Assembly (NCBI GenBank): GCA_965219345.1 | Contig: OZ244732.1 | Location: 384,001-448,000 of the forward strand | Length of the DNA: 64,000 bases | Reading direction: 5' to 3' | From: Nitrosopumilus sp. | GTDB taxonomy: Archaea; Thermoproteota; Nitrososphaeria; Nitrososphaerales; Nitrosopumilaceae | Part shown: piece by piece, positions 18,831-48,170 of the stretch | How positions within the stretch are numbered: position 1 is the first letter of the stretch | Layout of the letters: every line of letters starts with the position of its first letter | The notes under the pieces: model-generated | What the model saw: only the letters and a program-made list of their open reading frames with translations | The model's database searches: none | What the model was told of the DNA's origin: nothing | Program-made: the position numbers and the translations under genes

Positions 18831-20216
18831 GTGACACTAAAGAAGAGGGACGGCATTGTTGCGGCGATCCTGATGGCTGCAGCGATAACAGTGGTAGCAG
18901 CAGTAGCAGCAGTAGCAGCAGTAGCAGCAGTAGCAGTGACTGCAGGCCATGCGTATGGCCAGTCAGTCAATGATGCTGACGTGGAGATTCTTCCAACACT
19001 GAGATACGATGTCGGATATGGTACGATTGCCCATGATCTGTCCCTGGTAACAGAACGAGTTAACTTTATTCCTATACTTCATAATGCTATTGGTTACAAT
19101 GTCACTGGAAATCCCTGGATTGCCGTATTTCCCGACCCCCTGACCACTGAAGAGGGCGGCAGCCTTGTGGCATCCGGAGATCCCATAAAACCGTACGATT
19201 ACAGTGATGGCAATAGTCCCGAACTTGCCATAACCTGTAATACGGATAATTTTGGCCACGACCCCACAATGCTTGCCGAATTTGACTACATCCCCGGTGC
19301 CACATATACGGGCATCGATACGTTTGACATTGTCATAAAAGAGTTCACCTATACCGGTAATGCCGGGAATGCGACCTGTACTACTACTGGGGCAACCAAG
19401 ACCATACCCGTGGAGATTACGGTAGGTGAAAAGCCATCCGTAACGTTCAGGGATGACTTTACAAAGTTCTCCAACAGTTCCGGCGTAGTCGTGCTTGACC
19501 GTGATGATGACCTGATTGGTTTGCAACCTCCCGGTGATGGCTTCTTCGTCTTCCCGGTTCCATTTCCCTCCTTTGATCCCCCTGTAAGTAATGCAATAGT
19601 TGGACTTGACCTTCCTGAGACGACAGATGACGGATCAGCCATAACCCTCGACGAGGATACTGGAGACCATATCATCAGAGGCGTGTTTACTAATGACACC
19701 TTTGCATACAATGCGACTGCCAGTCTGCCTTACGGTACCGTTGCTGCAAACGGCACTATCGTAGGGTCCCTAAACGAGATTGCATCAAAAACAATTGACG
19801 TCACGCTGGATGCCTCTGGCGCTACTGATGTTCCTATATGCTCAGTCAGGGTATCCGCTGATCTAGACTTTGGCAGTCTGGCATATGGCGATATTTCGGA
19901 TAAAAAGAGAATTGCAACCAAGAATACTGGCACTACTTATGCTACTATGTTAATATCTGGCACTGACTGGCTGGACAGTCATGGTACCCCAATCATGGAT
20001 GTGGGGCAGACAAGGTACACTGATGACCCGGACATTGCATACGCGAATATACTATCAATATCTGAAACAGACAGAGGGTTTACCGCTTTTATCGGTCCTG
20101 ACAGGGAAAATGTCAACTGGCTGCAAGTTCAAATTGGTGGCGACATCAGTCCAGACTTTACAGGTCAGATTACACAGACTGTGACTATATCTGTGTTCTG
20201 TTTTGAGACTGCATAA
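18831..20216 (+). CDS. Acidic beta-rich secreted/surface protein (cargo of the IS6 unit)
   Basis: Probable GTG start at 18831 (VTLKKRDGIVAAILMAAAITVVAAVAAV…AYG signal); visibly higher GC than the flanks; Thr/Asp/Gly-rich. Confidence 0.7.
   Translation: MTLKKRDGIVAAILMAAAITVVAAVAAVAAVAAVAVTAGHAYGQSVNDADVEILPTLRYDVGYGTIAHDLSLVTERVNFIPILHNAIGYNVTGNPWIAVFPDPLTTEEGGSLVASGDPIKPYDYSDGNSPELAITCNTDNFGHDPTMLAEFDYIPGATYTGIDTFDIVIKEFTYTGNAGNATCTTTGATKTIPVEITVGEKPSVTFRDDFTKFSNSSGVVVLDRDDDLIGLQPPGDGFFVFPVPFPSFDPPVSNAIVGLDLPETTDDGSAITLDEDTGDHIIRGVFTNDTFAYNATASLPYGTVAANGTIVGSLNEIASKTIDVTLDASGATDVPICSVRVSADLDFGSLAYGDISDKKRIATKNTGTTYATMLISGTDWLDSHGTPIMDVGQTRYTDDPDIAYANILSISETDRGFTAFIGPDRENVNWLQVQIGGDISPDFTGQITQTVTISVFCFETA
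18894..18935 (+). repeat. 9-bp tandem repeat (GTAGCAGCA)x4.7 in the signal peptide
   Basis: Directly visible; encodes VAAVAAVAAVAAVA. Confidence 0.9.
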
Positions 20217-20275
20217 TGAAAGGAGTATCCCAATGTGTACAGATTACACAGACTGTGACTATATCTGTGTTCTGT
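20166..20275. repeat. 36-bp direct repeat around a 38-bp unique insert
   Basis: CAGATTACACAGACTGTGACTATATCTGTGTTCTGT at 20166..20201 and 20240..20275. Confidence 0.92.
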
Positions 20276-20878
20276 CCCTAGCCTTTCTTATTTATTTTGT
20301 AAAAATCCGTCATTGTGAATTAAAAGGGATGCCGGCTGCGTAGCCATTGTCTCTGGCATCATTATGCATCGGCCTTCGCTACTGCTGCTGTTGCTGCTGC
20401 TGCCACACGGTACAGTGGTGATTTTCCATTGGATGAAGGCCGCAGCGGGGATTCCCGGCATCAAAGACTATTGGCATGGATCTGCTGACTTGCAATGCTT
20501 GTGACTCTATCCCACTTGAAGAAGCTAGCTATGTTGCCTTCACCAAGTGGGAATGTATCTTCTAAACAGATGACGGCTTTGGACAAGGATGAATGGAGAA
20601 ACCAGTCCTGACTTGTCCCCCTCGACAACCTGACAGAACCAAATTCCGAAAGGTCTAGATCATAGTATGAGAACTTGCAAGAAGGTTGAATGTCAGACCG
20701 AGTCCCCGTTGCGCTTTTATGTCTCACTAAACAAGGCTACAGAATAACACCCGAAGGTTACACAGAACCCGATCAATTATCTATTAAATCTACATTGGTT
20801 CTGATGCAAAATAGCGATCTGATCACCAAAATATGCCAGAACCGATTATATTGTAGATAAAATGACAAAGAATCACTA

Positions 20879-21175
20879 ATGGGATTCATTGACTTGTTCC
20901 GCAAAAAGAAAAAACTAGAATCAACACCTGAACCAGCTAAGGAAGAACCAGCTAAGGAAGAACCAGCTAAGGAAGAACCAGCTAAGGAAGAACCAGCTAA
21001 GGAAGAACCAGCTAAGGAAGAACCAGCTAAGGAAGAACCAGCTAAGGAAGAACCAGCTAAGGAAGAACCAGCTAAGGAAGAACCAGCTAAGGAAGAACCA
21101 GCTAAGGAAGAACCAGCTAAGGAAGAACCAGCTAAGGAAGAACCAGCTAAGGAAGAACCAGCTAAGGAAGAATAA
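20879..21175 (+). CDS. Low-complexity (EPAKE)16 repeat protein
   Basis: MGFIDLFRKKKK leader followed by 16 perfect pentapeptides. Confidence 0.6.
   Translation: MGFIDLFRKKKKLESTPEPAKEEPAKEEPAKEEPAKEEPAKEEPAKEEPAKEEPAKEEPAKEEPAKEEPAKEEPAKEEPAKEEPAKEEPAKEEPAKEE
20930..21169 (+). repeat. Perfect 15-bp tandem repeat GAACCAGCTAAGGAA x16
   Basis: Directly visible; no spacers. Confidence 0.97.
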
Positions 21176-21306
21176 AACCAATAAATTAAACTATCTTTTT
21201 GTTTATCTGTGACAGTGCACCAAAACCGAATAAACAGTTTAAGACATTTTTGATCTCTAAATTGTGAATATAATCATCTAAAAATCAATGTTAAATAATA
21301 TGAGCC

Positions 21307-22190
21307 AACTTATCCCAATACACTCCAATACGTCATAATTGATGCCAAGCAAACAAATGCAAGATAGTTCTCTGAACGTCTTTCATATCTGATTCTGGTT
21401 CCGTGAAATCCATTTTTCAACCGCGCAAGGAATCTCTCTGCAACAGATCCTGTCTTGCCGTAATTGCTGTAACTGTTATTTTGTAAAATAAATTCGGAAT
21501 TACTCTTGCAGGGAATGCAACGTGTGATGCTGCTGTTTCTCGGATAATTCCCGATGCATCCTGCACCATATCCCCTGTCCGCATAAACTGAAACAATCTG
21601 ATTCGTCATGGAATTATCTGTAAAATCTGAAATTGGTTCTGTGACATCCACAAATTTTGCACTATCATGTTCATTTGCAGGACTAATTACAGCTGATTTG
21701 GCAAACTGTTTTGTTCCGCTACAACATGAATCTTTGTGCCCGTAATCCTTTTGAACCCGTCATATCCGGTCACATCCCCCCCCCCCTCTCCCTTTTTTTG
21801 GCAGAAACTAATGGGGAGTCAGCTGATATTTTTTGTAGATTGAGTTCGTTTGATTTATGAGCGGTTCTGATTATACATGACAGAGCCTTTTTCCAGATTC
21901 CCTTTTGCTGCCAAGAGTTTGATCTTCTGCTTGTCGTTGATCTAAAACCATATTTTTTTGGCATTTGGTTCCATCTGCATCGGTTATTGCAACAAACAAA
22001 ATTCCACTGATGATTTTTCTGTCATTACTTCCTGGACGGCCCGCAGGGATGGTTTTGGAACATGCTGTTTCATCACATCCCACTGCTTGTCAGTTAGTTC
22101 TTGAAACTGCATAAAATGGAATCAATTTTGTTTCGAATGGATCTAACTGATCCTTAAAAACTCACTAAATGATCAGTTTTGGGACAAGTT
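21307..22190 (-). mobile_element. Degenerate IS5-family element (IS427-like two-ORF type)
   Basis: Fragments GRP…NDRKIISGILFV, MPKKYG…WQQKGIW, VYADRGY…ERFLARLK…IRYER; ends AACTTATCCCAA / TTGGGACAAGTT (11/12 IR). Confidence 0.8.
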
Positions 22191-22599
22191 AATAGTTTCA
22201 GCATCTGCTAATCTATTTGATAAAGAAACAAGTTCGGGTGGCAGTGCAGAAGATGGCTATGATGGTAAAGCAATAGATGAAGAAACATTGGCATTACTTG
22301 GTTTTGATGACTGGCAAAAAGCGTTTAACAAAATAGGAGAATTTCCATGTACACATGAATTTTGTCGTAATCGTATAAAGACTATGGACAAATCAGAATA
22401 TACTCAATGGCAATGGTATATTGATTTACGTAAACATAATGTTTTAGCGTTAACAGATTGGATGAAAATGATTAGGGAATCAGTACAAAATGAGATGGCA
22501 GATTTATCTGTGAACAGAATAAGAAATTCTCCGTATGCTATACTTAATGAATTACTAGTTAAAAATTATGAAGATCCTACAGAAAATTTTGGACAATAA
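22191..22599 (+). pseudogene. C-terminal remnant of a protein cut by the IS5 element
   Basis: Reading frame of 22288..22599 appears open back to the IS end; no proper start. Confidence 0.4.
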
Positions 22600-22602
22600 A
22601 TA

Positions 22603-23056
22603 ATGACAAATAAGACATACGAAGTAGTTGACGGATATTATTCTTGGGAGCAAATAATTGCAACAGCACTAGAACATCCAGCTCATACGGATATTCTTGT
22701 TGAGTTTGATATGGTTCCAAAGATTCCATCTAATTTTAAAAAAATACATGCAGATAATGATGGGCAAAAAGATAACTATGGAATTAGTTTATCAGATAAA
22801 CGATGTATTCACATCAAAGTTTATGATAATTATTACAAAGTTCATTGGGACAAACGAAGCTCGTTAACAGATCCTTTGAGACAAACGAAGCTCGTTAACA
22901 GATCCTTTGGGACATCTGTATCATGATGCACCACACTGGTTTGTATTACTTGCTGTTGGTACGGTAGTAGGTCTTGGTGTAGGTACGTATTATGGATACA
23001 AAAAACTCAAAAAAATAAAATCAGAGTCTGAAGAATTACAAGAAACATATCTGTGA
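22603..23056 (+). pseudogene. Small archaeal membrane-anchored protein frameshifted by a 31-bp tandem duplication
   Basis: Removing one copy of 22849..22879 gives …[55 protein letters not shown]…ETYL* with a C-terminal TM helix. Confidence 0.7.
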
Positions 23057-23177
23057 TAACAAACTGAAACCATGTCCCGATCCTTGACACTAAGATTGAA
23101 CAGTGTAAAACCCAAGATAATAATATGAACAATTACTTTGTTACACTTAACAAGTATCTAAAATAACAGGCAAAATA

Positions 23178-23254
23178 TGGCGGGTCTAGAGGGATTCGGA
23201 CCCTCGACAACCGGATTAAGAGTCCGGTGCGCTACCTGGCTGCGCCATAGACCC
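23178..23254 (-). tRNA. tRNA-Lys(CTT), CCA encoded
   Basis: GGGTCTA…CCGGA CT CTT AA TCCGG…GAGGG TCCGAAT CCCTC TAGACCC G CCA; acceptor, anticodon and T stems pair. Confidence 0.95.
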
Positions 23255-23313
23255 ATCAAAATAAATTAGCCCAGAGTTGTTATTAATCTTAAGATTGTAA
23301 AATAAAGGAAAAT

Positions 23314-23916
23314 CTAGTTTTGTGCTTTTGCTTCAATTTCATTATACTTTTCAAGAATTGCTGTTAGTACAGTTGAAACTGGAACATCATTCATCTTTTT
23401 CTTTTCGACAAGGATCTTTTGGTATGCATCTAGTGTGATGTATACAGGAATTGAACCATTTCCTTCAAGTAGACCTCTGACGTTGTAAAGAGCAGTCTCC
23501 ATGCCTTTCTCAGCAGATTTTGCAAATTTTGCCTTATCCAAAATTGCTCCTAGTGGACCAAATGGCATCGCATAATCTACTGACATGGTTATTCTAGTGA
23601 GATTATCACCTAATGCTTTGAATTCATTGGTAATTTGCCATTTTTTAAAAGGACCTTCAATTTGTTTTGCAGAGATTCTTTCGTTTTTAATAAATTCAGT
23701 TGTTTCACAATCCCATTCTAGACGTTTACCGCCAAAGTCACCAATAATTCTAAAAGTTGTACCCACACCCATTCCTTCTTTGATATCCATAGGAACAACT
23801 GTCATGCCCACTACATCAGTTTTAATCTGGTCAGAGATGTGTTCAGGTCTTGCAAAATAGGTAAAAACATTCTCTACTGGTGTTTTGATATCAATAGACT
23901 TTGTAACTAAGGTCAC
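23314..23916 (-). CDS. SRPBCC (polyketide cyclase/START-like) protein
   Basis: VTKSIDIKTPVENVFTY…GVGTTF…QIEGPFKKW…TRITMSVDY. Confidence 0.8.
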   Translation of the reverse strand: MTLVTKSIDIKTPVENVFTYFARPEHISDQIKTDVVGMTVVPMDIKEGMGVGTTFRIIGDFGGKRLEWDCETTEFIKNERISAKQIEGPFKKWQITNEFKALGDNLTRITMSVDYAMPFGPLGAILDKAKFAKSAEKGMETALYNVRGLLEGNGSIPVYITLDAYQKILVEKKKMNDVPVSTVLTAILEKYNEIEAKAQN

Positions 23917-24012
23917 GACTAAATTTCTCGTCGTTTAGGATTTAAAGGTTTTGAAGATTTTCGTAAAGAAATTGATTTACAATATATTTATCCATTTTCT
24001 ATGACAATCTAA

Positions 24013-24534
24013 ATGTCTAAAAGGCGATCAGTTTTTTTGATCTTTGTTTTACTATCATCTGTCTCAATATTTGATTATGCTTATGCTCATTCAATGTTTA
24101 ATTCTGCTGAGAAATTTGAAGTAGGATATAGAGTACAAGTAGCTACAGCACCAGAGTTTCCGCAAATTGGAGAACCTTCTCAATTCAGAGTAAAAGTAAC
24201 TGAAGGGTTTGACTATGAAGAAGTAGATAGATTTACAATGGGAGTACGAATTTTCTTTAATGATCAACAAGTAGATACAATACCTGTAACACACATAGAA
24301 GGATCTCATTGGGATTTTGATTATGTATGGAAAACTCAAGGAAATCATATTGTATTGATTGATTTGTACAATATTGGAGAAAATCAAGGAATTGTAACTT
24401 ATACATTTAACATGGGAACACAAAATCCGTTTGGATACATCTTCTTTACTGCAATAACTGCAGGTGCTATGGGTCTAGTAATAGTTGTTGGAATTGTTTA
24501 CTTGCCAAAAAAATTTAAAAGATTTAGATTTTAG
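24013..24534 (+). CDS. Exported protein with C-terminal membrane anchor
   Basis: Signal peptide ending AYAH; C-terminal TM helix followed by basic tail. Confidence 0.7.
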   Translation: MSKRRSVFLIFVLLSSVSIFDYAYAHSMFNSAEKFEVGYRVQVATAPEFPQIGEPSQFRVKVTEGFDYEEVDRFTMGVRIFFNDQQVDTIPVTHIEGSHWDFDYVWKTQGNHIVLIDLYNIGENQGIVTYTFNMGTQNPFGYIFFTAITAGAMGLVIVVGIVYLPKKFKRFRF

Positions 24535-24967
24535 ACTCCATGGGAATTCTAGAGATTCTAAATGCAAATAATGTAGTTAACAACACCATTGCAAATAACA
24601 ATATTCCAATTCCCAAATGAACTGCAACTAAAACCGCATGTAGTTTCAGATCAATTACCAAGGCACCAAGAGTGATTTGAGTAATAACAAATACAGTTGC
24701 AAGTGAGCTTGTTACTTTGATCTTCAAGTCAGCATTCTTGTTAATTAGACAGGCAACCATAGTTGCAATTACTAATGCTCCAGTAGTTGCTGCAACTAGC
24801 CTATGAGTCCATTCAATTAGATATTCCTCAGCAGGTAACACCCCACTTGGGCATAATGGCCACTCAGGACAAGTCAGACCAAGTCCAGCTGCGGAGATAT
24901 ATCCTCCAATAAACATTAGAGAATACAAAACAATCATTGTTACTAATGCAAGATACTGGATTGCCAA
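24524..24967 (-). CDS. ctaA: Heme A synthase (CtaA/COX15-like, short type)
   Basis: GLTCPEWPLC…EWTHRL…VHL; downstream of the cox genes. Confidence 0.85.
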   Translation of the reverse strand: MAIQYLALVTMIVLYSLMFIGGYISAAGLGLTCPEWPLCPSGVLPAEEYLIEWTHRLVAATTGALVIATMVACLINKNADLKIKVTSSLATVFVITQITLGALVIDLKLHAVLVAVHLGIGILLFAMVLLTTLFAFRISRIPMESKI

Positions 24968-24969
24968 AA

Positions 24970-25572
24970 CTATTCCACAATAAAGCTACCCTGCATGCCT
25001 TGTAATGCATGTCCTGGAATAGTACAGATGTAGTAATAAGCTCCCGGGGCACCAGCAGTGAAAGTAGTACTATCGCCTTCACCTGGCTTCAGAGGATTGG
25101 ACATGGTAGCAATTGCAGAGTCCCAAATTACACTGTTAAAGTCTTCAGGGTTTGAAACAACTCCAAATGAATGAAATGATTTACCCATGTTATTGGTAGT
25201 AATGGTGACATCATCACCAGAATTAACTCGGATTTCTGGATTATGACCATCCTCACCGGGTAATGCATTAAATGCCAAAGTCCTAAAGTCATCAGACTCT
25301 ACAAAGTCCAAAGTAAATTCATGAGATACGCCTGTTGGAGCTGCCGCTGTTCCTGAAGACCCAGCTGGTGCAGCATGATCGTCTTCTCCTGCCATCATTG
25401 CAACAACTGGAGCAGGTTCTGAAATCCAATAGTCCCACATTGCAAAGAATATCACTCCGCCAACAATACAAATACCCAACATTATGGCCAGCATCTTTCC
25501 AGTTCTGGATGCAGAAGTTCTGTATACTGGATGTGCTGGTTCGTTTGCTGGGTGTTCTGTTTCGTTACTCAT
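24970..25572 (-). CDS. Membrane-anchored blue (type 1) copper protein
   Basis: HSF…YYYICTIPGHALQGM copper ligands; N-terminal TM helix. Confidence 0.9.
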   Translation of the reverse strand: MSNETEHPANEPAHPVYRTSASRTGKMLAIMLGICIVGGVIFFAMWDYWISEPAPVVAMMAGEDDHAAPAGSSGTAAAPTGVSHEFTLDFVESDDFRTLAFNALPGEDGHNPEIRVNSGDDVTITTNNMGKSFHSFGVVSNPEDFNSVIWDSAIATMSNPLKPGEGDSTTFTAGAPGAYYYICTIPGHALQGMQGSFIVE

Positions 25573-25581
25573 TTTTTTATC

Positions 25582-27108
25582 CTAATGATGTGGGTTCTTC
25601 GACTCGAACGGATAGTAGTACTTTCCACCTAGACCGAATGGGTCCTCGGTATTTGCAAGTTTTCCTTTTGCTGAACTGTAAATCATGTTGTACAGGAATA
25701 TTGCCATACTGACGCCAATAATCATTGCACCAACAGATGCAATCTGATTCATGGCAATCCATTCTGGGATTGGCGGATAATCGTAAATTCTCCTTGGCAT
25801 GCCATACAAACCAAGTACGTGTTGTGTAAAGAATACCAATATTGTGCCTACAAATGACAGGAAAAAGTGTACCTTACCCATAGTTTCATTGTACATTCTG
25901 CCCGTGACATATGGGAACATGTAGTAGAGATAACCAATTGAACCAAATGCAATAGTACCCATTACAAAGAGGTGGAAGTGACCGACTACCCAGTATGAAT
26001 CATGTGTTGAAAAGTCTAATGGCATTGCGCTGTTAACTACACCACCTGCACCCGCAGCGAAGAACAATGCGATTCCTCCAACTGCCCACATCATTGGTGT
26101 TGAGAATTTAATTCTGCCATTCCACATTGTTGCAATAAAGTTGAATACGTGCATGGCAGATGCTGGAACAGCTGCAAGAGTTCCTACCATAAAGACCGTT
26201 TTTTCGGTAAATGACATTCCTGTTGCAAACATGTGATGTGCCCATGATGAGAAAGATACTAGCGATAACATTACAAACGCAAAGACTCCAGAGTTGTAGC
26301 TGAAGATTGGCTTTCTTGAGAATCTTGGAATGATTTCATACATCATGCCAATAGCTGGAATTACCAAGACGTATACCTCTGGATGGAATGTAAACCAGAA
26401 CAAGTGTGAATATGCGATTGGATCACCGCCCATTGCAGGATTAAAAAATCCACTAACACCTAGTCTGTCAGTTAGAAGCATCAAGAGTGCTGCTGCAAAT
26501 GTTGGAATTGCAACAATGATAATCAAAGATGTTGCCAAAAATGACCAAGCTAAAAGTGGAACTTGGCCAATTGACATGTCTGGATGCTTACATTTGAGAA
26601 TTGTAACTACAAAGTTGACGGCACCAAGTACTGATGAAACACCCAAAATCTTTAGTCCAAATATCCACATGTCAGCTGCTGGACCTGGAGCACTAATGAT
26701 AGAGTATGGCGGTTGTGCGTACCAGGTAAAGTCTGCAAAGCCTAACCAGACCAGCGCAGCAGCAGGCGGAATCATCCAAAACGCAATTGCGTTAAGTTTT
26801 GGATATGCCATATCCTTGTATCTAACCATTATTGGAACAAAGTAATTACCAACTGCAGATGCAAAAGGAATGATAAACAAGAAGATCAGTGTTGTGCCAT
26901 GAACAGTAAAGATTCTGTTAAAGGTCATAGAATCAGCAATGATTTGTGTGCCAGGCAAGAACAACTCAGCTCTGATAGCAAGTGCTAATGTGCCACCTAA
27001 GAACAAGAATGCTAGCGAGGAGATAAGATAGAGTAAACCAATATCAGTGTGATGTGTCGAGAACATGATTTGCCAGATTGGACGTGGCTTTTGTAATTCT
27101 AGGACCAT
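25582..27108 (-). CDS. coxA: Heme-copper terminal oxidase subunit I
   Basis: FTVHG, WFTFHPEVY, WAHHMF, GHFH, GMPRR. Confidence 0.97.
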   Translation of the reverse strand: MVLELQKPRPIWQIMFSTHHTDIGLLYLISSLAFLFLGGTLALAIRAELFLPGTQIIADSMTFNRIFTVHGTTLIFLFIIPFASAVGNYFVPIMVRYKDMAYPKLNAIAFWMIPPAAALVWLGFADFTWYAQPPYSIISAPGPAADMWIFGLKILGVSSVLGAVNFVVTILKCKHPDMSIGQVPLLAWSFLATSLIIIVAIPTFAAALLMLLTDRLGVSGFFNPAMGGDPIAYSHLFWFTFHPEVYVLVIPAIGMMYEIIPRFSRKPIFSYNSGVFAFVMLSLVSFSSWAHHMFATGMSFTEKTVFMVGTLAAVPASAMHVFNFIATMWNGRIKFSTPMMWAVGGIALFFAAGAGGVVNSAMPLDFSTHDSYWVVGHFHLFVMGTIAFGSIGYLYYMFPYVTGRMYNETMGKVHFFLSFVGTILVFFTQHVLGLYGMPRRIYDYPPIPEWIAMNQIASVGAMIIGVSMAIFLYNMIYSSAKGKLANTEDPFGLGGKYYYPFESKNPHH

Positions 27109-27157
27109 TAGTTAATCTCCTCATTTTGAATGCTAGGAAGTTGTGATAATAATGTTA

Positions 27158-27589
27158 TCAAGCTGACGGTTCCTCCACATATAGTGTTCCGCGCATGTTA
27201 TAATGAATCAGTCCACAGTATTCTCTGCATTGGATATCATGTTCTCCCACTGCATCTGGAGCAAACCATACAACATTGACTCTTCCTGGAATTGCGTCAA
27301 GTAAAACAACATAATCATGAATATTAAAAGAGTGGATTACGTCTTTTGACATAATCTCAAACTTGTATGCCTTTCCGACTTCAACATGTAGTTCGCCGAT
27401 TTCTTTGGTTCCATCTTCATGTTCAAAAGTCCAGAACCATTGTTGTCCAGTTACTTTGATTACTTCAGCACCTTCAGGAACGTGTTCCACAAGTCTCTCT
27501 GCTTCCCATGCTTCTGCTCCAACCCATGCCATTAATGCAATTACAACAGCAACGTAAATCCATTCAGGATAATTAGAGTGTCCACTCAT
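27158..27589 (-). CDS. coxB: Heme-copper oxidase subunit II (CuA domain)
   Basis: GQQWFW…DVIHSF…CREYCGLIHYNM. Confidence 0.95.
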   Translation of the reverse strand: MSGHSNYPEWIYVAVVIALMAWVGAEAWEAERLVEHVPEGAEVIKVTGQQWFWTFEHEDGTKEIGELHVEVGKAYKFEIMSKDVIHSFNIHDYVVLLDAIPGRVNVVWFAPDAVGEHDIQCREYCGLIHYNMRGTLYVEEPSA

Positions 27590-27591
27590 TC

Positions 27592-27852
27592 CTACCAGTC
27601 AGTTCCCTCATATGCAGTTGGTTTTGCTTTTGGGTGAGATTCTCTAAATCTCCAGACTAACCAGATCATTGTTCCTGCGACTACTGCACCAACTGTGAAC
27701 GCAACAGTCATCATTCTAAAGAACAAGTTCCAGATAATTACTCTGCGATCAAGATATTCCCCAGGTTCGTCACCCGCAGCAAATGCCAAGTCTACTGCCG
27801 GAATTATAACTAAAACTGCCAATACTAAGAGTAATTTGACCATCCCTTTCAT
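27592..27852 (-). CDS. Small membrane protein of the cox operon (subunit II TM-like)
   Basis: Two hydrophobic segments, …LVWRFRE; first gene of the cox run. Confidence 0.7.
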   Translation of the reverse strand: MKGMVKLLLVLAVLVIIPAVDLAFAAGDEPGEYLDRRVIIWNLFFRMMTVAFTVGAVVAGTMIWLVWRFRESHPKAKPTAYEGTDW

Positions 27853-29255: not shown

Positions 29256-29275
29256 TTCTGTTTTTTTCATTAATC

Positions 29276-36829: not shown

Positions 36830-37768
36830 CTATAGTTCAGATTCCAAAATAATCATTTTTAAAATATCATCATAGTAAATATTGGATTTTTCATGAATAG
36901 CTAAATGTAAAAAATCTTGCCAGGCATTTAATTCATCATATTTAGCAGAAAAATTATATATTTTAATATCGTATTTTTCAGACATATAATTTAGTATTGA
37001 GTAAAAATTATGTTTGTCATTATCTGGAAAATTTTCATAATAATTTTTATGAACAGGAAGAATGTAAATAACAACCTCAATTTCATTATCTTTTAAAGAA
37101 GATATAATTTGTTCAAAAGACTCTCTTTGAAAACTATATTCGTCAATTCTTTGGATAGGTGATAGGTTCTTTGTTAACGCATTAATTTCGTCTTTAGATG
37201 CTAAAACAAAATTATTTTTTCCGGGTTTATAAAAAGGGGTTTTTTCCAGTGAAATGTTAATTTTATTATCAACAAGTCCAGTAGAATTAAAAATATTTAG
37301 AAGAGCTCGTTTTGTAGTTACTTTGGGGTTTATCCAGTTTAATTCATTGTCAATTCTTAAAAAAATTTCATTTGTAAATTTTTTTACATCAGGTAAAAAA
37401 TTTGTTGAATCACTGTGTGTATTAAAATCTCTTAATGAAATTCCATAAAAAACAATTTCAGGATTTAATAAAATAATTGAATCAATAGTCTTTTTTCGTT
37501 CAAATGGAGAATCACCAGGCATTGCCAAATTATACAGTACTAGATTTTTTGAGTTTCCGGATATATTGTTATTAATATAGGTCATGTTAATTGAACCTAC
37601 TTGACTTGATCCAATCAAAAATGCAGTTGGGTGATCAAATTTGTGATTAAAGAATGGATCATCATTAGATACATTATTTGGATCTGGATATAGATTATGT
37701 ATAACAAGTAATGTTGATAATACTAAAACAAATGAAATTAGAATTGCAAAACCAATTGAAGAATTCAT
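36830..37768 (-). CDS. SGNH/DltD-like partner of the MBOAT
   Basis: N-terminal TM; IGSSQ, YNLAMPG, QDFLHL (DxxH); abuts the MBOAT gene. Confidence 0.7.
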   Translation of the reverse strand: MNSSIGFAILISFVLVLSTLLVIHNLYPDPNNVSNDDPFFNHKFDHPTAFLIGSSQVGSINMTYINNNISGNSKNLVLYNLAMPGDSPFERKKTIDSIILLNPEIVFYGISLRDFNTHSDSTNFLPDVKKFTNEIFLRIDNELNWINPKVTTKRALLNIFNSTGLVDNKINISLEKTPFYKPGKNNFVLASKDEINALTKNLSPIQRIDEYSFQRESFEQIISSLKDNEIEVVIYILPVHKNYYENFPDNDKHNFYSILNYMSEKYDIKIYNFSAKYDELNAWQDFLHLAIHEKSNIYYDDILKMIILESEL

Positions 37769-39281: not shown

Positions 39282-39283
39282 GA

Positions 39284-40324: not shown

Positions 40325-40403
40325 GAAAAATATGCTAAAACTTCGATATTTAATGGTAATTAGACAATGACATAATATTTCGAATATATCTCAAATCAAT
40401 ATA

Positions 40404-40538
40404 ATGAGGATTTTCATTATCGGTGGAGGTGGATTTATTGGAAGTCATTTAGTAAAATTTTTGCTTACAAAAAAATTCGATATTACAGTTTTTGATGATT
40501 TATCAAATTCTTCTGAAAACAAAATTAAATCAATGTAA
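40404..40538 (+). pseudogene. N-terminal stub of an NAD-dependent epimerase cut at the island edge
   Basis: MRIFIIGGGGFIGSHLVKFLL…VFDDLSNS then stop where GC content jumps. Confidence 0.8.
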
Positions 40539-40568
40539 ACCGGTATAAGCCCTTATCCCACATGAAAT

Positions 40569-41471
40569 TCAGCAAGCTAGAAGGTTCTGCAGACCCTCTT
40601 CCATGACTATGTTTGGCTTCCAGCCCAACATCCTGCCGGCTTTGGATATGTCTGCCACACTCATCTTGACATCACCAGGTCGGGGTTCTTGGTATTCTGG
40701 TTCTAGTGACTTGCCAGAAATCTTGATCATTAAGCGCGCAAGATCTGTAATTGATATTGACCTGCCGCTGCCTATGTTGAAGAATCCCTCTTTGACCTTG
40801 CTTGTCATTGCTGCAAGATTTGCACGTACAACATCATGCACAAATACAAAATCCTTGATTTGCGAACCGTCTCCATAGATTATCGGCGGCTTTTCTTCCT
40901 TGATTCGATCCAAGAATCTAGGTATGACCCCGGAATATGCCTGCTTGCGTCCCAATCCCACCACGTTAAAATATCGTAAACTAACTATGCGTGCACCTCT
41001 CTTGGTATACCTCTCGGCTGCAAGTTCCGCCTCAAACTTGGTCATGCCGTACGGATTGAGTGGCTTTCGTGGAACGTCTTCTTGGATTGGAATGCCCTGC
41101 CCATTTCCATATACAGTAGAACTGCTGGCGTAAACTATTCTGATGCCATGCTCCAGACCAATCCTAAAGACGTTCGCCGTACCGGCAACGTTCACCTGCC
41201 TGTATTCGTCCTCGTTCTCGTACGAGCCCGGAATGTAGGCCAAGGCGGCTTGGTGGAATATTCCATCCGCATCACAAAGAACTTCATTTAGCCTATCATA
41301 CTCGCGAATGTCCATTCTGATAAAGTCTATCTTGTCATGAACCCCCTCAAGGTTGGGCACACTGCCCCTAGACAGATTGTCTACCACCGTCACGCTGTGT
41401 CCATCTAAGACTAGGCGTTTGACAATGTGGCTCCCGACGAATCCGGCACCTCCGGTTACGGCAAAATTCAT
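40569..41471 (-). CDS. NAD-dependent nucleotide-sugar epimerase/dehydratase
   Basis: TGGAGFVGS, HQAA, YGMTK (YxxxK), LRYFNV. Confidence 0.9.
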   Translation of the reverse strand: MNFAVTGGAGFVGSHIVKRLVLDGHSVTVVDNLSRGSVPNLEGVHDKIDFIRMDIREYDRLNEVLCDADGIFHQAALAYIPGSYENEDEYRQVNVAGTANVFRIGLEHGIRIVYASSSTVYGNGQGIPIQEDVPRKPLNPYGMTKFEAELAAERYTKRGARIVSLRYFNVVGLGRKQAYSGVIPRFLDRIKEEKPPIIYGDGSQIKDFVFVHDVVRANLAAMTSKVKEGFFNIGSGRSISITDLARLMIKISGKSLEPEYQEPRPGDVKMSVADISKAGRMLGWKPNIVMEEGLQNLLAC

Positions 41472-41727
41472 GAATTCGTTGTCTGGAGAACCTATTTAAC
41501 TCTAAGTCAGCAAACACCGGGCCAAGGCTTCGTGCTTTGCATTCTAGCCACATGCCAAACCTGATCTTTTACTGCTTGGATTGTCGTGTTTTAACGATTC
41601 AGCGTTCGCATTCCAAGGCTCATTGTCTCCTTCACATTCTGTGGCTGGAAACTTGGATTTGGCAGCGGGACTCTAAATTTTCGGTCACTTGCAAACTATT
41701 GATGCATCTTCGAACTCTCACACATGG

Positions 41728-43029
41728 TCAACTACCAAGGCCTACAGCCCTAAAGTTCATCTCTCGAAACTCTTTTGCGTCCAGGACCCTTCTGGCATCT
41801 ATGATGTTGCCAGATTTCATACGTCTTAGGAAATCCTGCGGCCTTATCCTTATACACATCCCAATCCGTCAAGATTATGCAACAGTCAGAACCCTCAAGG
41901 CATTCTACAGCGGACACAGAGTATGAGATTTTTGTGCCAAATACTCGTTTAAAATTCTTCAGTGCCATTGGGTCATGAACCCTGATTCTTAGTCCATGCT
42001 CCAACAGCTTCCCTACCACTCTCACCGACACAGCCTCTCTTATGTCGTCAGTGTCCTTCTTGAATGCTAGACCTAGAACCGCAACAGTATTGCCTTCTGC
42101 TAGAGTGCCCTGTTCCTTCACCATCCTATTATATTCATGAATTGCTTGTCATTTACATCCTTTACCGCCTGGAAGAGTTCTGGCATTTTTCCGATCTCCT
42201 GCGAGATGGTGATCATGCCAGTCAGATCCTTTGGCAGGCAGCTACCTCCAAATCCCGGTCCGGCCTGCAAGAACAGCGGGCCTATGCGCGGATCCTTTCC
42301 AATTGCATGCGCTATGGTGTTTACGTCGGAGCCTCGAATGCCCTGGCAGAGGCTGTCTATGGAATTGATGAAGCTGATCTTTGTCGCGAGAAATGCATTT
42401 AACATCGATGGGACGGCATATGAACGCGGCGTAAAAAGTTGATGAAGCTGATCTTTGTCGCGAGAAATGCATTGTTTGCATACTTTATCAGCTCCGCAGT
42501 GGGAATGCTGGTGTGCATGATTTCTGGGAGCGTCTCATGAAACTTCCTATAGTACCTCTCTAAGATCAGCGAACTCTGTCTCCTGTTGGAGCCTATCACG
42601 ATCAAATGCGGTTTTAGAAGGTCGGCTATGGCAAATCCCTCCCTCAGGAATTCGGGGTTTACAACCACGTCCATTCTTCCGTCCCCAATCATGTCTTTGA
42701 AGACTGGCAGGATGAGATTTTCCGTAGTCATCGGTGGAACAGTGCTCTTTACTACCAGCAAATGGGGCGTCTTCCTGTACTTCAAGGACATGGCAATCCG
42801 CTCGACGGCATTTTTGACATGTGACAGGTCAACCTCGTTGCTGTTGCTCTTTAGCGGTGTCCCGACGGTAAGAAACGTGATCTCGGAATTCTGCAAAGCG
42901 TAGTCAAAATCGGTCGTAAAATGGATCTTTTTTCTTTTCATCGAATCCTTCAACATCGCCACGGCCGGCCCCGGCAACTAGGTCGGTGGATTTTATATCC
43001 AAAAGGATAGTTACAATTCTACCTCTCAT
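41728..43029 (-). pseudogene. UDP-glucose 6-dehydrogenase family pseudogene
   Basis: VGTP, KSTVPP, NPEFLREG, ELIKYANNAFLATKISFIN, GPGFGGSCLPKD, LGLAFKKDTDDIRE spread over several frames; N-terminal deletion and a 74-bp duplication-plus-insert. Confidence 0.9.
42365..42473. repeat. 35-bp direct repeat around a 39-bp unique insert
   Basis: TTGATGAAGCTGATCTTTGTCGCGAGAAATGCATT at 42365..42399 and 42439..42473. Confidence 0.92.
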
Positions 43030-43954
43030 GCGTATCCATCCCGTCCGAATTGGTCCCTAACCCGTCAAGCGAGTCTCTGATGCACTCCACGTAGCTCTCA
43101 GGAGTTCCTACGTCTATCCTCCTCTCTCCCGTTTCCAACTCCACTGCAACACACTTGCCGTTTGCAACTAGTGACTTTATTGCATCAGTAAGCTGGATCT
43201 CCTCATTCCTGTCGGGTTTGGTTCTTTTCAACTCGTCAAATATCGAAGGTTTGAAGATGTATGTGGCAATGACTGCCAAGTTAGTCTTGGGCCGCCTTGG
43301 TTTCTCCTCCAAGTGCTCCACCCTGAAAAGCCCATCTCCGATACTCTTTCCCTCGATGACTCCATATCGTTCTGGTTTCTCTACCCTGTCTACGAGAAGT
43401 ACAAGATCTGCTCCGTTTGAGAAGAACGCATCTTCCAGCCTCCGCATGTGGCTGTTCCCGGGTGACAGGATTACATCGTCTCCTGCCTGAAGCAAAAAGT
43501 TGTCCTTTTCTGCAAAGATCTTCGCCTTCAGAACCGCATCACCAAATCCACGTGGCTATGACTGTTGCACGTACATGATATGACTGGAGCGTATCTTTTT
43601 GTAAAAGTCTTGCAAGTCGATATTTGTCGAGTACTTGACAGAGTTGTCTATCAGAAAATAATCCTCAATGGATCTCTTGCCACGGCCGACGACGAAACAG
43701 AACTTGCGGCAGCCGTGGTCGTACAAGGACTCGTACACTACCTCAAGAATCGGTTTGAGGATGAGACGGCCATCCTTCGTTTTTGCGCAATATGGCAGCA
43801 GCATCTCTTTTGGAGTTTCCTTACTAAATGGCAAGAGTCTGCTCCCACTTCCTGCCGCGGTAATTACCGCCTTTCCTATCTTTCCCACTATTCTTGGTTT
43901 ATTGTCCCCTTTAACATATTTTGTCTTTATGCTGTGGGTTGTTATTTTGTACAA
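43019..43954 (-). pseudogene. GalU-like sugar-1-phosphate nucleotidyltransferase with in-frame TAG
   Basis: KAVITAAGSGSRLLPFSKETPKEML…QQS*PRGFGDAV…GDD…EEKP…EIQLTDAI; both halves are in the same frame. Confidence 0.85.
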
Positions 43955-44077
43955 AAAGTAATTTACTACGTACCCACGGAGACAAAACGACTGAGAAATG
44001 GCACCAATCTCTGAACTTGTGTTTGGCTCGCGTCAAATTGACAGAACTTGTCAAACAAATGCATTATATAAAAGACA

Positions 44078-44980
44078 ATGAGATTCCGCATTACGGGTAT
44101 GCATCCAAACATGATTAAATGGAGTGCCTTTATGATGGCACGCAATGAAGAGGGAATGGTAACGGATGCCGTCTCCTGTCTACGAAACCAAACAGTACCC
44201 CCGACTCGCATCCATGTACTCAATGACGGTTCTACTGATTCCACTGGTCGGATATTGGAGAATATGAATGACGTGACAGTCACGTGTGCTCCGCCGCATC
44301 CACCTCAACATTCAGATCTTCTCTACATATTACGTAGACATAAACTCATGCGTGAAGCTGCCAAAGGCATGGATTACGTGCTGTGCATGGATGCCGATAC
44401 AGAAATTCCGTCTGATTACGTGGAACGGATCATAGAGAGAATGAGACTGGATAATGTCGTCGTAGCATGTGGCATGGATGCTGCAGCACCCAAAACTTCC
44501 CCAATTGAGCCAGGAATGGTAATTGACGTAAAATGGCTCAACACCCATCCCAAGTTACCTCCATACGCACTGTCGTTTCTTACAGCTGAATCGGTAATAG
44601 ACGGACATCCGTCCATAGTATACACTACTACGCCACTACGATACAAAAGAAAGTTTGGAGTCAATTACAAGCCAAACGTATGGAGGCTTCGAGGCGTACA
44701 AATCAGTATGCACGGGTTGGCATTTTGGTGGGTGGTATTGTTTACTTTATATCGTTGGAGATGGTCCAATTTTTGGGGGTATGTTTTGTACAAGGGCGAC
44801 AAGCTGTCAAAACAACATAGTCAATATACAAATAGGATTTTTATGGCCCGTGCCAAGAGAAAAATTGGGTTAAGTCAACAAGCACTATTGACAACGGAAG
44901 TTGGACTGTTCATACTCCCTAAAGACTACGCCAAAAACCATTCACTTCCTCCTATAGCGACATGCAAAAGCTCGCGTTAG
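44078..44980 (+). CDS. Glycosyltransferase family 2
   Basis: ARNEE…NDGSTDST…MDADT. Confidence 0.85.
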   Translation: MRFRITGMHPNMIKWSAFMMARNEEGMVTDAVSCLRNQTVPPTRIHVLNDGSTDSTGRILENMNDVTVTCAPPHPPQHSDLLYILRRHKLMREAAKGMDYVLCMDADTEIPSDYVERIIERMRLDNVVVACGMDAAAPKTSPIEPGMVIDVKWLNTHPKLPPYALSFLTAESVIDGHPSIVYTTTPLRYKRKFGVNYKPNVWRLRGVQISMHGLAFWWVVLFTLYRWRWSNFWGYVLYKGDKLSKQHSQYTNRIFMARAKRKIGLSQQALLTTEVGLFILPKDYAKNHSLPPIATCKSSR

Positions 44981-45015
44981 GTTAATCGAAAAATTTGTAG
45001 ATTAGATCCCAACTC

Positions 45016-45200
45016 ATGGCTGCATGGACGCCATAAAGTGGGAAGAACTTGAAAAGACGTGCAAAAAGATTCACAGGATCGGGCTATAATGGTTGCCGTC
45101 CGCATGGTACGCGTGCTTCATGTCAGTAGATGCGACTGCAAGCCTTCAGGTACGCTGTCCCACGTGAGTCCGTGATTGGCTGTGCCATTAGAACTCATGC
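45016..45200 (+). mobile_element. IS630-like transposase N-terminal (HTH) remnant
   Basis: Broken frames reading AIMVAVRMVRVL…QVRCPT*VRDWL; family assignment is from memory of such HTH regions. Confidence 0.4.
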
Positions 45201-45361
45201 GTATTCCCCCAATATCTGCCGGAGCCGGCCGCTGCGGCAATAAGATTTTGCAGGCTTGAAGAAAAAATCAATTTCAGTGAAATGGATCTGAAGCATGCTG
45301 CGGTATTTTTTGCACCGATGGAGCGAGTGCGTGCGCAGCACTGCAGCGCGGCTGTGCGCCC

Positions 45362-45467
45362 CGAACAATGCCTATTTTACGGTAGCCATTGAGCTGGGTC
45401 GGGTTTTGGTTTTGTTAACATCCACGACATCAAACGAACAATGCCTATTTTACGGTAGCCATTGAGC
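45362..45467. repeat. 33-bp direct repeat around a 40-bp unique insert
   Basis: CGAACAATGCCTATTTTACGGTAGCCATTGAGC at 45362..45394 and 45435..45467. Confidence 0.92.
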
Positions 45468-46694
45468 GGGCCCGTTCCCAGTCGACTGACGTCTTCCACT
45501 CTCCCGGAGGGAGGGCCTCCTTGCGCACGTGGTCCCACAGCAGGTGCAGGTTTACAAGCCCAGTTATCACGTTAAACTACCTGTTGAACCGGGCCGCCGT
45601 CCCGTCGTAGGAGTCTGCGATGCGGTCGTAGCGCTTGAGCCTTCCTATGGAATGCTCTACCAGCACCCGCTCCGAGTTGATCCTGCTGTTGTGCTCCCTC
45701 TGCTCCCGCGTCAGGGGGGATTTTTTCGTCCTCTTGTACGGGATCATCGGGGCGGTGCCCAGAAGGTGGTCCGTGATTCCTTGGAGGCCGCGGTCGCAGA
45801 AGATGCGGTTTCGTTTCCCCTCCGGCCTGTCGGCGTCATGCATCGCCTCCTCCCACTTTCCAAACGGCATGGGGCACTCCTTGAGCAGCGTGATGTCGCC
45901 GACAGACCCCACCGTGCTCTCAGATATCCCGATTATCACCCCGTCCCTGTTGGTGTACACGTTGATGTTATTGGTAAACCTCTTCTTCTTGCCTGAATAC
46001 TTTATGCGCCTGAGCGTCTTCTCGGAGGGGCGCTACACGGGACAGTGCGTGCCGTCAAGGAAGATGTCTCCCCCGCCCTGCCCGGGGACTCCTCTTGAAC
46101 TCTTCCTGGGTCGCGGCGCCGGCTATCTCCTCGGATATCTTGGCGGCCGTCGGGAGCGTCTCTGCCAGCATCCTGTCCATCACCCGCAGGTACCGGGACA
46201 CGATGGTTTGGTCTATCCCGAAGAACGCGGCGAGCACCCCCTGCGGGGTTGTCCTTCTTGTGGACGAGCGCCATGAGCAGCGCGTGCCTCAGGTACAGCT
46301 TGCATCTGTTGTCCGGGTCTGAGGCCCTGCACTCGTCGTCGCGGAACAGCGGCATCTGGCCGGAATCCCTCAGGAACCTTTCTGCTCGCTCCAGCATGTA
46401 CCGGAACTTGGGGCCGTCTGCCAGCGTGGCCTGGCGGAGCTTGTCCCCGCCGCGGATTATGTCGTCAAGGATCTCCAGCCGGTGTAGCGCGGACCACTTG
46501 CCGGCTTCCCAGCTGCCGTCCCTGCTCTTCCACAGACTGCGCTCAAGATCCAGTTCCCTATCCTTCTGCTCCAGCGCTCTGCCTTTCTGCTGCAGCTTTT
46601 TCTCTTTCTCCTTCAGAATCTTTTTCAGATTCTTGTTTTCTTGCTGCAGCGTGTAAATCATCTGATCAGGCGAGTCAGGCATTTGATGTAGCAC
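45440..46694 (-). mobile_element. Frameshifted IS5-like (DDE_Tnp_4 type) transposase
   Basis: LAAFFGIDQTIVSRY (HTH), DGT, FCDRGLQG, PYKR…LTREQREHN…SERVLVEHSIGRLK; high GC. Confidence 0.8.
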
Positions 46695-46744
46695 GCGATC
46701 GTGTCCGATCTAAATCTATCGATCAGATAGGCGAATTACGCATA

Positions 46745-46920
46745 TCTTCTATTACCCTCCTTGCGCTTGCAGTAGGAGACCAGGATGTCTCTGGCCTTGC
46801 CGGGGGAAGATCTTTTGATCATGCGGCAAAGAGCCCTCCTGCTCGTGCCGGGAAGAAACCTACCTCCCTTTGGAAGCCCTGCTTCATTGCGAACCGGCGC
46901 GCGTGAAGGTGTCATGCGGA
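46745..46920 (-). mobile_element. Probable transposase N-terminal remnant
   Basis: GRFLPGTSRRALCRMIKRSSPGKARDILVSYCKRKEG, GC-rich, cut by the neighbouring IS. Confidence 0.35.
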
Positions 46921-47077
46921 CGCGGGAGGTGTGCTCGGATCAAAACCTTTCGGCTAATGGACACGGGCATCTAAAAATTCAGATGGTAAATTAGCGAAAC
47001 ATTTTGGCCTCTACTACGCATAATCTCTTTTGACTATCGTCTTCTGAACGCTTTGATCGGAGCAGATAAGATTACAA

Positions 47078-47937
47078 TTACTGTGGAGGATGGTATATTC
47101 GGTTCTTGCCGTGCTCATCAAACATTCTATGTCGCTTCTGACGCTTGAATCGGCGACTGCATAAGTACGTTTCCTTCATCATCGTCCAGTACATCCGTCC
47201 CATGTCTTCTGGAACTTCTCTTCTTGCTTGAAATACTCCCTTGCAGTAATTGTATCCGTACCTAAACCCACATTTTCTTGCCACACTCACTGACTGATAA
47301 GCCGCAAAATGCAACGGCATACCCATCAGTCTGCACAATCTTCCCTGCTGATAGGCTCGGTTAATAGTACGGTTAGCTCCAAATGGTCGTGTAACTGTCA
47401 CGACACAATCATCGTCAAGGCACACAAGAATGTTCTTGCCTGTAGTTAGCGCTTTGATAGAAAGGTAAATACTCTCCCATTTTGTCTCCATGCCGTTGCT
47501 CTTGAGCCAATCATGCTTGATCATCCTAAAACCATCCCAGGGTGTGCGAACAAAATGACCGTTTACGGTTCCGCTTCCAATACTTGCGTTGTTCTCTTCT
47601 GAACGCCTCATTACTATTTCACAGTATCTTGGCGGTATCACAGTATCGGCATCGCCCATGTATATCCAGTCAACTGGATCGTAGCGGATATACGCAAGAC
47701 CCACATTTCTTACTTGACCTAGTGTATTTGAGAAAACCTCCCTTCCTTGTTATGATGCGGAATGCGCTTAACAAAAACTGGCATTTTATCTAATATTTCA
47801 GGTGTTGAATCGGTTGAGCCATCATCAACCACCACTATTCTGTATGGCCTTATGGACTGGTTCAGGATTGATTCTATCGTCTTTCTGATGTGCTTCTCTT
47901 CGTTTCTGGCTATTATGACCGCACTATATTTTGGCAT
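47078..47937 (-). pseudogene. Glycosyltransferase family 2, frameshifted near 47725
   Basis: MPKYSAVIIARNEE…DDGSTDST / …YMGDADT. Confidence 0.8.
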
Positions 47938-47952
47938 TCTCCCCCCCCCCAC

Positions 47953-48045
47953 AAACCTTTCTCATGATGTGGATAACCCGGGATTTGCAACTTTGCAAGA
48001 TTTGAAGCAGTTCTACCAAAACCTTTCTCATGATGTGGATAACCC
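47953..48045. repeat. 27-28-bp direct repeat around a 38-39-bp unique insert; second copy hit by the MITE
   Basis: AAACCTTTCTCATGATGTGGATAACCC at 47953..47979 and 48019..48045. Confidence 0.9.
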
Positions 48046-48125
48046 TAGTTTGTTGCATAACTTGGATTCTAGGCACGAAATTTATCCAACTTTTGACTGG
48101 ATTAGGCGTGTTATGCAACAAACTA
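48046..48125. mobile_element. 80-bp MITE, copy 2, with 8-bp TSD
   Basis: Same 16-bp TIRs as 16063..16142; GATAACCC on both sides (48038..48045 and 48126..48133). Confidence 0.9.
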
Positions 48126-48170
48126 GATAACCCGCAAAGTTGTTAATATATCCTATCACAAGTGTAGTAG

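Follow-up and report, generated by a model that had tools for sequence, protein, structure and literature searches.

Candidate off-target spacer integration scars in the chromosome of a Nitrosopumilus sp. carrying a type I-G CRISPR-Cas system

Duplicated Targets and Short Inserts at Four Loci

A 64,000-nt stretch of the chromosome of Nitrosopumilus sp. (GenBank assembly GCA_965219345.1, contig OZ244732.1; G000:C1:384001-448000), referred to as the window, was analyzed for four loci at which resident sequence is directly duplicated around a short insert (A-X-A). These loci are called scars here, and they were compared with the type I-G CRISPR-Cas system of the same genome. Plain positions refer to the window and positions preceded by C1 to the contig. 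The direct-repeat search of the whole window revealed seven repeat families within 150 bp, and four of them were loci 1-4. The A-X-A geometry was present at all four loci named in the original prediction, with coordinates right to within a base or two.

Locus 1 was located at the end of a surface-type open reading frame (ORF) of 495 aa on the plus strand (18729-20216). Copy 1 (20166-20201, 36 bp) encoded the final codons of this ORF, the 38-bp insert (20202-20239) provided a new stop codon, and copy 2 (20240-20275, 36 bp), identical to copy 1, preceded the gene's original end, CCC TAG. The only effect of the insertion on the 495-aa ORF was on the residue before the stop, which changed from P to F. 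A paralog at C1:332797-333324 contained the target once. The insert had no exact match in viral_contigs and was absent from 150 other genomes of the genus when up to 3 mismatches were allowed.

Locus 2 was located in a UDP-glucose/GDP-mannose dehydrogenase gene on the minus strand, which was split by a 39-bp insert (42400-42438) between two identical 35-bp copies (42365-42399 and 42439-42473). Positions 2-27 and 11-93 of the PF00984 profile were matched by the ORFs 42399-42977(-) and 42118-42405(-), respectively, and this overlap is what duplication of the target predicts. The insert of locus 2 also had no exact match in viral_contigs. In run X9, which came from another study, a contig spanned 42373-42557, including the insert and copy 2, with zero differences.

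Locus 3 consisted of copy 1 (45362-45397, 36 bp), a 37-bp insert (45398-45434) and copy 2 (45435-45470, 36 bp), with one mismatch between the copies at 45395. The insert was an exact reverse-complement copy of C1:1084474-1084510 and thus came from the host chromosome. In runs X4 and X6, contigs joined 45364 directly to 45438, with exactly 73 bp skipped, which is an empty form of locus 3.

Locus 4 consisted of two 27-bp copies (47953-47979 and 48019-48045) and a 39-bp insert (47980-48018), with a period of 66 bp; elsewhere in the genome, its insert was unmatched. Three bases upstream of its copy 1 was a run of ten C (47941-47950).

The duplication and insert lengths first given for loci 1 and 2 were correct. 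Locus 3 had been given as 33 and 40 bp; a 36-bp duplication containing one mismatch, around 37 bp of insert, is the better reading, since the 37-nt insert then matches C1:1084474-1084510 in full. Locus 4 had been given as 28 and 38 bp and was found to be 27 and 39 bp. It had also been stated that no insert matched within the window, and the source of the locus 3 insert exists outside it. The label of "transposase end" given to one target was not confirmed by Pfam.

Genome-Wide Set of Scars

The genome consisted of contig C1 (1,871,224 bp) and contig C2 (41,585 bp), with 36% GC. A mismatch-tolerant scan of C1, which required at least 27 of 30 positions to match and covered every period of 31-160 bp, revealed 64 isolated direct repeats, with 28 at periods of 70-76 bp and 8 at 64-68 bp. 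The remaining 28 were scattered over the other 117 periods, many at the protein-repeat multiples 120, 150, 153 and 156, and the background was about 0.24 isolated repeats per period. In the exact-match scan (isolated direct repeats of at least 18 nt), 21 repeats had a period of 70-74 bp, 6 of 65-69 bp and 2 of 75-79 bp, and almost all other 5-bp bins from 15 to 200 bp contained 0-3. The genome-wide length distribution was sharply peaked, not flat, and the peak of A-X-A repeats is far above chance.

Boundary refinement and filtering left 43 candidates. On visual inspection, five were judged to be repeats within proteins or tandem repeats and were removed (C1:605066, 1030900, 1161738, 1706949 and 1779671), and one A-X-A-X-A locus (C1:1432749) was added, giving 39 loci. 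Of these, 37 were independent, 29 in a main class (class A) and 8 in a minor class. The other two were later copies within repeated elements: the scar at C1:243305 copied that at 37490, and the scar at 1826944 copied that at 1483340 in reverse complement. Loci 1-3 of the window belonged to class A and locus 4 to the minor class, and the single class first proposed for the four loci was accordingly kept for three of them.

The class A periods were 73 bp (9 loci), 74 (6), 72 (5), 71 (4), 75 (3), 70 (1) and 76 (1). The class A duplications were 36 bp (11 loci), 37 (8), 38 (4) or 32-35 (6) in length, and the inserts across the scars were 32-41 bp. The two copies were identical in 19 of the 29 main-class scars and differed by 1-2 mismatches in the other 10, which suggests that the process has run for some time.

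Each locus had its own "repeat," and the native 36-nt CRISPR repeat had no copy outside its array with up to 8 substitutions allowed. The inserts shared no sequence with each other, as first noticed in the window, except in the two later-copied scars. Shared repeats with two or more different spacers, the marks of a genuine mini or orphan CRISPR array, were not found among the loci. The locus at C1:1432749-1432926 had three target copies and the same 41-nt insert twice, with a period of 73 bp; apparently a scar unit was duplicated by recombination between its copies, rather than extended by a second acquisition. As this was the one locus of its form, the earlier suggestion that scars seed new arrays is doubtful.

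Several scars affected coding sequences. A 75-bp scar was in frame within a 3375-aa ORF and amounted to a 25-codon addition. Removal of the scar in silico lengthened the open frame at several other loci; at C1:1519410, frames of 439 and 257 codons became one of 666 codons.

Sequence Context of the Scars

Windows of 5 kb with a GC content of at least 0.40 make up 14% of the genome and contained 54% of the 39 scars; the observed mean was reached by 0 of 5000 random draws. The scars were also clustered, with 13 gaps shorter than 10 kb against 7.1 expected (p = 0.009). Either a target preference or the tolerance of dispensable DNA for insertions could underlie the enrichment in GC-rich DNA.

Six scars occurred within 70 kb (C1:1503080-1573481) around the cumulative GC-skew minimum at 1,554,947, the probable replication terminus, where the local GC content was 42-50%. 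The 40-48 kb stretch of the window had a GC content of 42-51%, against a genome mean of 36%, and contained fragmentary ORFs of sugar metabolism and glycosyltransferases. Contigs of runs X4 and X6 covered 45010-47115 at 5-15x the depth of the adjoining parts of the window and showed numerous single-base differences; more abundant organisms of these samples thus carry DNA like it, and recent horizontal transfer of this segment may have occurred.

Resident Type I-G CRISPR-Cas System

A search of the genome for Cas1 revealed two places, a Cas4/Cas1 fusion ORF and a 77-aa Cas1b fragment. The Cas4g/Cas1g fusion ORF was 561 aa long and matched the NCBIfam model over its whole length, with 754 bits against a cut-off of 560. 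It was followed by Cas2 (95 aa), and the CRISPR array began 178 bp downstream. The array (C1:1641728-1653821) consisted of 164 repeats of 36 nt, 163 of them identical. Genes for Cas3g, Csx17/Cas8g, Csb1/Cas7g and Csb2 were located across the array from cas4/1 on the opposite strand. All six I-G proteins exceeded their NCBIfam cut-offs, so that the system, at about C1:1.64 Mb and 1.2 Mb from the window, was classified as a complete type I-G system. Archaeal ribosomal proteins were encoded upstream of the cas locus.

The 163 native spacers were 36 nt (37 spacers), 37 (35), 38 (34), 39 (23), 40 (13) or 35 nt (8) in length, and 13 were longer; the periods were 71-76 bp in 150 of the 163 units. The native repeat ended in AGC and had a 7-bp palindromic stem. 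The spacer end next to the following repeat was biased, with A as the last base in 77 of the 163 spacers and C at -4 in 64 and at -3 in 55; prespacer trimming or a protospacer adjacent motif (PAM) may have left this bias.

Comparison with the scars showed that the modal class A duplication of 36 bp equaled the native repeat length and that the peak coincided with a 36-nt repeat plus spacers of 35-40 nt. The ectopic and native period distributions showed no significant difference (Mann-Whitney p = 0.15, with native periods limited to 76 or less). Duplications longer than 36 bp can arise by chance identity at a boundary, where the base adjacent to the target equals the end of the insert, and two over-length duplications were resolved in this way through the sources of their inserts. 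Duplications shorter than 36 bp can arise from mismatches.

The original prediction held that a Cas1-type integrase with a length ruler inserts spacer-sized DNA across this chromosome. The scan, the array comparison and the intact-looking Cas4/Cas1 fusion and Cas2 beside the array, which give this genome an adaptation module of its own, support it and point to Cas4/1-Cas2 as the putative enzyme.

Empty Sites

At seven loci, paralogs in the same genome had the target as a single copy, and the alignment ended at the last base of copy 1 and resumed at the first base of copy 2. The insert was therefore absent from the original sequence. The loci were E243305 (2 paralogs), E404166 (window locus 1), E919312, E1448839, E1335276 (4 paralogs of a multi-copy element, 97-99% identity), E1503080 (3 paralogs) and E333438 (lower identity). 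Together with the empty form of locus 3 in public contigs, these paralogs support insertion rather than slippage. At C1:1448839, a paralog of the locus 1 gene, the same C-terminal site had been struck independently, with a different insert and a 31-bp duplication.

Sources of the Inserts

BLAST of the 39 inserts against the genome identified chromosomal sources for 8 of the 37 independent inserts. Six sources were perfect over the full length (inserts of C1:88227, 123645, 429362, which is window locus 3, 915773, 919312 and 1519410), one was at 97% (C1:1638625) and one at 94% (C1:1432749). The sources were hundreds of kilobases away from the scars, in either orientation, and not in the adjacent DNA from which slippage would have templated them. 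One further insert had a partial match in a repeated gene family. No ectopic insert or native spacer matched the 41.6-kb second contig.

The 163 array spacers had no comparable match to the chromosome, the best being three 22-nt matches with two mismatches each. Self-derived sequences were thus found in 8 of 37 inserts vs. 0 of 163 array spacers (Fisher p = 7e-7), as expected if autoimmunity purges array spacers that target the chromosome but spares scars, which would have no guide RNA.

Two sources were in and just beyond a 486-bp region upstream of an Orc1/Cdc6 gene (within about 600 bp of orc1/cdc6). This region, within C1:575060-575660 and beside the DNA polymerase small subunit, was 69% AT and contained repeated GTTAACA-type motifs. 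It was about 22 kb from the cumulative GC-skew maximum at 597,585 and is for this reason probably a replication origin. Another source was found roughly 5 kb upstream of the CRISPR array. In E. coli and Pyrococcus, self-spacers are known to be captured preferentially at the origin, the terminus and CRISPR-proximal DNA.

Minor Class and a Putative Lost Type I-B System

The eight loci of the minor class, including window locus 4, had periods of 64-68 bp; the duplication was 36 bp long in one of them and 27-32 bp in the others. The one with 36 bp (C1:1824847, period 68) was counted here by its period and may belong to the main class by its duplication length. A second array in the relative L060 had a 30-nt repeat and a period of 65-69 bp. 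In the present genome, the 77-aa type I-B Cas1 fragment was followed by a solitary 30-nt repeat with 4 substitutions relative to the L060 repeat, and this segment (C1:1123013-1123277) is a decayed second CRISPR locus. The minor class probably represents scars of a lost type I-B system with a 30-nt repeat. Two points tell against this origin: the duplication lengths are less uniform than in the main class, and the proposed enzyme is no longer in the genome.

Scars in Relatives and in Other Hosts of the Fusion

The Cas4/Cas1 fusion was above the cut-off in 7 of 81 genomes drawn from the genus. The same scan was applied to the initial 400 kb of several genomes, which form a small sample that is not phylogenetically independent; isolated repeats with a period of 70-76 bp numbered 7 (G000), 5 (G051) and 2 (G087) in genomes with the fusion and 1 (G002), 0 (G072) and 0 (G059) in genomes with no Cas1 match. 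In the fusion-positive genomes, every such repeat had a non-native target.

In the 10-kb flanks of cas4/1 in other records, scars with non-native targets were found in L018 (1), L031 (4), L044 (1, a Dehalococcoidia record) and L054 (1, a Caldilineaceae record). The 73-bp scar of L054 (L054:10963-11071) was a 36-bp duplication with a 37-bp insert inside cas4/1 itself, which was split into ORFs of 452 and 224 aa; an adaptation gene was apparently disabled by an event of the same type that it catalyses. Strong enrichment of scars near the cas locus was not supported: about 7-9 non-native scars per about 600 kb of cas flanks (length estimated) was similar to the density in G000.

Proposed Origin of the Scars and Alternative Explanations

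The main class very probably arose by off-target (non-CRISPR) spacer integration by Cas4/1-Cas2. In the proposed mechanism, the type I-G Cas4/Cas1 fusion and Cas2 would capture prespacers of 35-40 bp. In the normal route, the two 3' ends of the prespacer would be joined to the two 5' ends of the array's first 36-bp repeat, and this repeat would then be duplicated through gap repair. The same reaction would repeatedly have struck ordinary chromosomal DNA, where the 36-bp stagger of the integrase would leave the target duplicated over 36 bp on both sides of a single spacer-sized insert. This I-G kind would account for window loci 1-3 and for 29 independent loci genome-wide. With arbitrary sequences in place of repeats, the scars are not expected to act as CRISPR units; they would be insertion mutations that survive mainly in dispensable GC-rich DNA.

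In line with a Cas1-type reaction, a 5' G was present on at least one strand of the duplicated segment in 11 of the 15 loci with an exact 36-bp duplication, which include loci from relatives as well as G000 (about 35% expected, binomial p = 0.003).

Several observations weigh against this origin. The link between enzyme and scars consists of dimensions and co-occurrence. The targets resembled the native repeat weakly, with a mean best identity of 12.7 of 36 vs. 11.75 +/- 0.41 for random 36-mers, and palindromic targets were rejected, the mean best stem being 3.9 bp vs. 4.06 +/- 0.20 bp in random 36-mers. BLAST against the genome gave no source for 29 of the 37 independent inserts. TTN was present on either side of 3 of the 8 sources and was not clearly enriched, with source boundaries ambiguous by 1-2 nt in the PAM and orientation analysis; TTN is the PAM of Geobacter I-G and may not be that of this host. 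Contigs of the four public runs broke at repeats of at least 31 nt, so that most scars could not be bridged; stretches lacking coverage were left out of the evidence, as were the small-share runs X1-X3. G002, which had no Cas1 match, had one isolated repeat with a period of 72 bp. Among bacterial hosts of the same fusion (400 kb each), G165 had 1 clean scar and G163 none at a period of 70-76 bp, and dense scarring in every host of the enzyme family was rejected on these counts.

The Cas1-type events could be real and yet many of them could have taken place in other organisms, the scars arriving ready-made in horizontally acquired GC-rich islands. Such import would fit the clustering of the scars and their concentration in high-GC DNA, the 5-15x depth of window 45.0-47.1 kb in X4 and X6 with similar DNA in more abundant organisms, and the presence of Cas4/1 relatives (50-57% identity) in Caldilineaceae and Dehalococcoidia records and of related I-G modules in Chloroflexota metagenome-assembled genomes (MAGs). 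It is nevertheless unlikely, because all eight sourced inserts copy the chromosome in which they lie, including the AT-rich region upstream of orc1/cdc6, and the insert of locus 3 does so inside a GC-rich island. The scar dimensions also fit the genome's own array, several targets are its own multi-copy elements or paralogous surface-protein genes with empty copies alongside, and the two sampled bacterial hosts carry few scars. An enzyme independent of CRISPR, belonging to a small mobile element or being a casposase or an undescribed transposase, might also make a 36-bp duplication, and the slight likeness of the targets to the CRISPR repeat and the lack of a PAM signal in the sources would be natural for it. 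This is very unlikely: the inserts share no sequence and hence represent no element, the fusion and the 77-aa Cas1b fragment are the only Cas1-family matches in the genome, the duplication and insert lengths coincide with the resident array, and the scars track the presence of the fusion among the sampled members of the genus. A transposon or miniature inverted-repeat transposable element was rejected, as a conserved insert with terminal inverted repeats was not found. A casposon, which would be a kilobase-sized element with a casposase gene and terminal inverted repeats, was rejected as well, since the inserts were 32-41 bp and Cas1-family matches were confined to the fusion and the Cas1b fragment; the target duplication of casposons is usually 14-15 bp.

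Slippage during replication, template switching or a partial tandem duplication of the resident sequence is a further alternative, and direct repeats can promote such events, as the unit duplication at C1:1432749 illustrates. They predict no fixed dimensions of 36 bp and 35-40 bp, however, and an insert templated within a few hundred base pairs was seen at 0 of 39 loci; with empty-site paralogs that lack the insert and sources hundreds of kilobases off in either orientation, this explanation is extremely unlikely for the scars. Assembly or sequencing artefacts would have to be considered for an apparently metagenome-type assembly in which the evidence comes from contigs. Their probability is practically negligible, given that the X9 contig from another study covered the insert and copy 2 of locus 2 with no difference, that 10 of the 29 independent class A scars have mismatches between their copies, and that two scars were copied along with the repeated elements that host them. 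The same pattern also occurred in independent assemblies of other species, and the dimensions track the CRISPR array of each genome, not the read length.

Comparison with Known Systems

In the type I-E system of E. coli, the repeat-length duplication is 28 bp. Nivala, Shipman and Church (2018, Nat Microbiol, cited in bioRxiv 10.1101/148544, PMC7054753) described off-target integration that generates "neo-CRISPR" units when E. coli over-produces Cas1-Cas2; according to bioRxiv 10.1101/148544, that study had only "circumstantial evidence" for two other species. The scars share with these units the spacer-sized insert, the repeat-length duplication of a non-CRISPR target, the adaptation module and the scattered chromosomal positions. 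They differ in being natural, archaeal and associated with a type I-G Cas4/Cas1 fusion and a 36-bp duplication, and in their number: one genome of 1.87 Mb contains 37 fixed events, and related species have scars as well.

Cas1-Cas2 of Pyrococcus furiosus was reported to perform full-site integration in vitro at non-CRISPR sites with attack points one repeat length apart, and at these off-target sites G was preferred at the point of integration, with little else required of the sequence (PMC6698737). The G preference of the scar targets is similar to that of these sites (PMC6698737). In contrast to that assay, which used plasmids in a test tube and had a 30-bp spacing, the products described here are fixed in genomes and have a 36-bp spacing, with a second class near 30 bp.

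For the Cas4/1 fusion of Geobacter sulfurreducens type I-G (formerly I-U), 36-bp spacers predominated, the repeat ended in AGC, a TTN PAM was selected and plasmids were preferred in E. coli; the term "off-target" is absent from the text of that study (PMC6547450). The fused Cas4/Cas1 with Cas2, the predominant 36-bp spacer and the repeat ending in AGC are common to both systems. Unlike in Geobacter, 8 of the 37 ectopic inserts here came from the host chromosome, and TTN, at 3 of 8 sources, was not clearly enriched. Ectopic spacer acquisition in Streptococcus takes place inside CRISPR arrays, away from the leader-proximal repeat (PMC7999890, PMC7316486); genuine internal array repeats are used there, whereas the targets here are unrelated chromosomal sequences.

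The mechanism is already known from E. coli and in vitro, and what is new is its scale in natural genomes. In the literature searched, no account was found of dense natural off-target scars, nor of the phenomenon in Nitrosopumilus or in type I-G. If the scars have the proposed origin, CRISPR adaptation becomes measurable as a natural insertional mutagen, with a split dehydrogenase gene, a 25-codon addition and a disrupted cas4/1 in another MAG as examples. Scars that escape the autoimmunity filter would record raw prespacer capture, of which about a fifth is self DNA, with sources that include the replication-origin region and the neighborhood of the CRISPR locus. Such a record bears on how adaptation separates self from non-self. 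The off-target sites would also provide a sequence-independent read-out of the integrase ruler, with a value of 36 bp in I-G and of about 30 bp in the lost I-B system; this read-out can reveal CRISPR systems lost from a lineage, and the same simple scan is applicable to all public genomes.

As a tentative wider model, Cas4/1-Cas2 of the Nitrosopumilus-group I-G systems may possibly be a chromosome-wide integrase with little leader dependence and an error rate high enough to shape the genome. It would inactivate genes preferentially in acquired GC-rich DNA, the scars would form an unselected archive of capture, and their units could occasionally seed arrays with new repeats.

Other Repeats in the Window

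Other repeats in the window were unrelated to the scars. A 15-bp unit was repeated about 20 times at 20870-21229, and a 31-bp tandem duplication was present at 22845-22906. A 9-bp serine-type coding repeat was located at 18879-18932, inside the surface-protein ORF.

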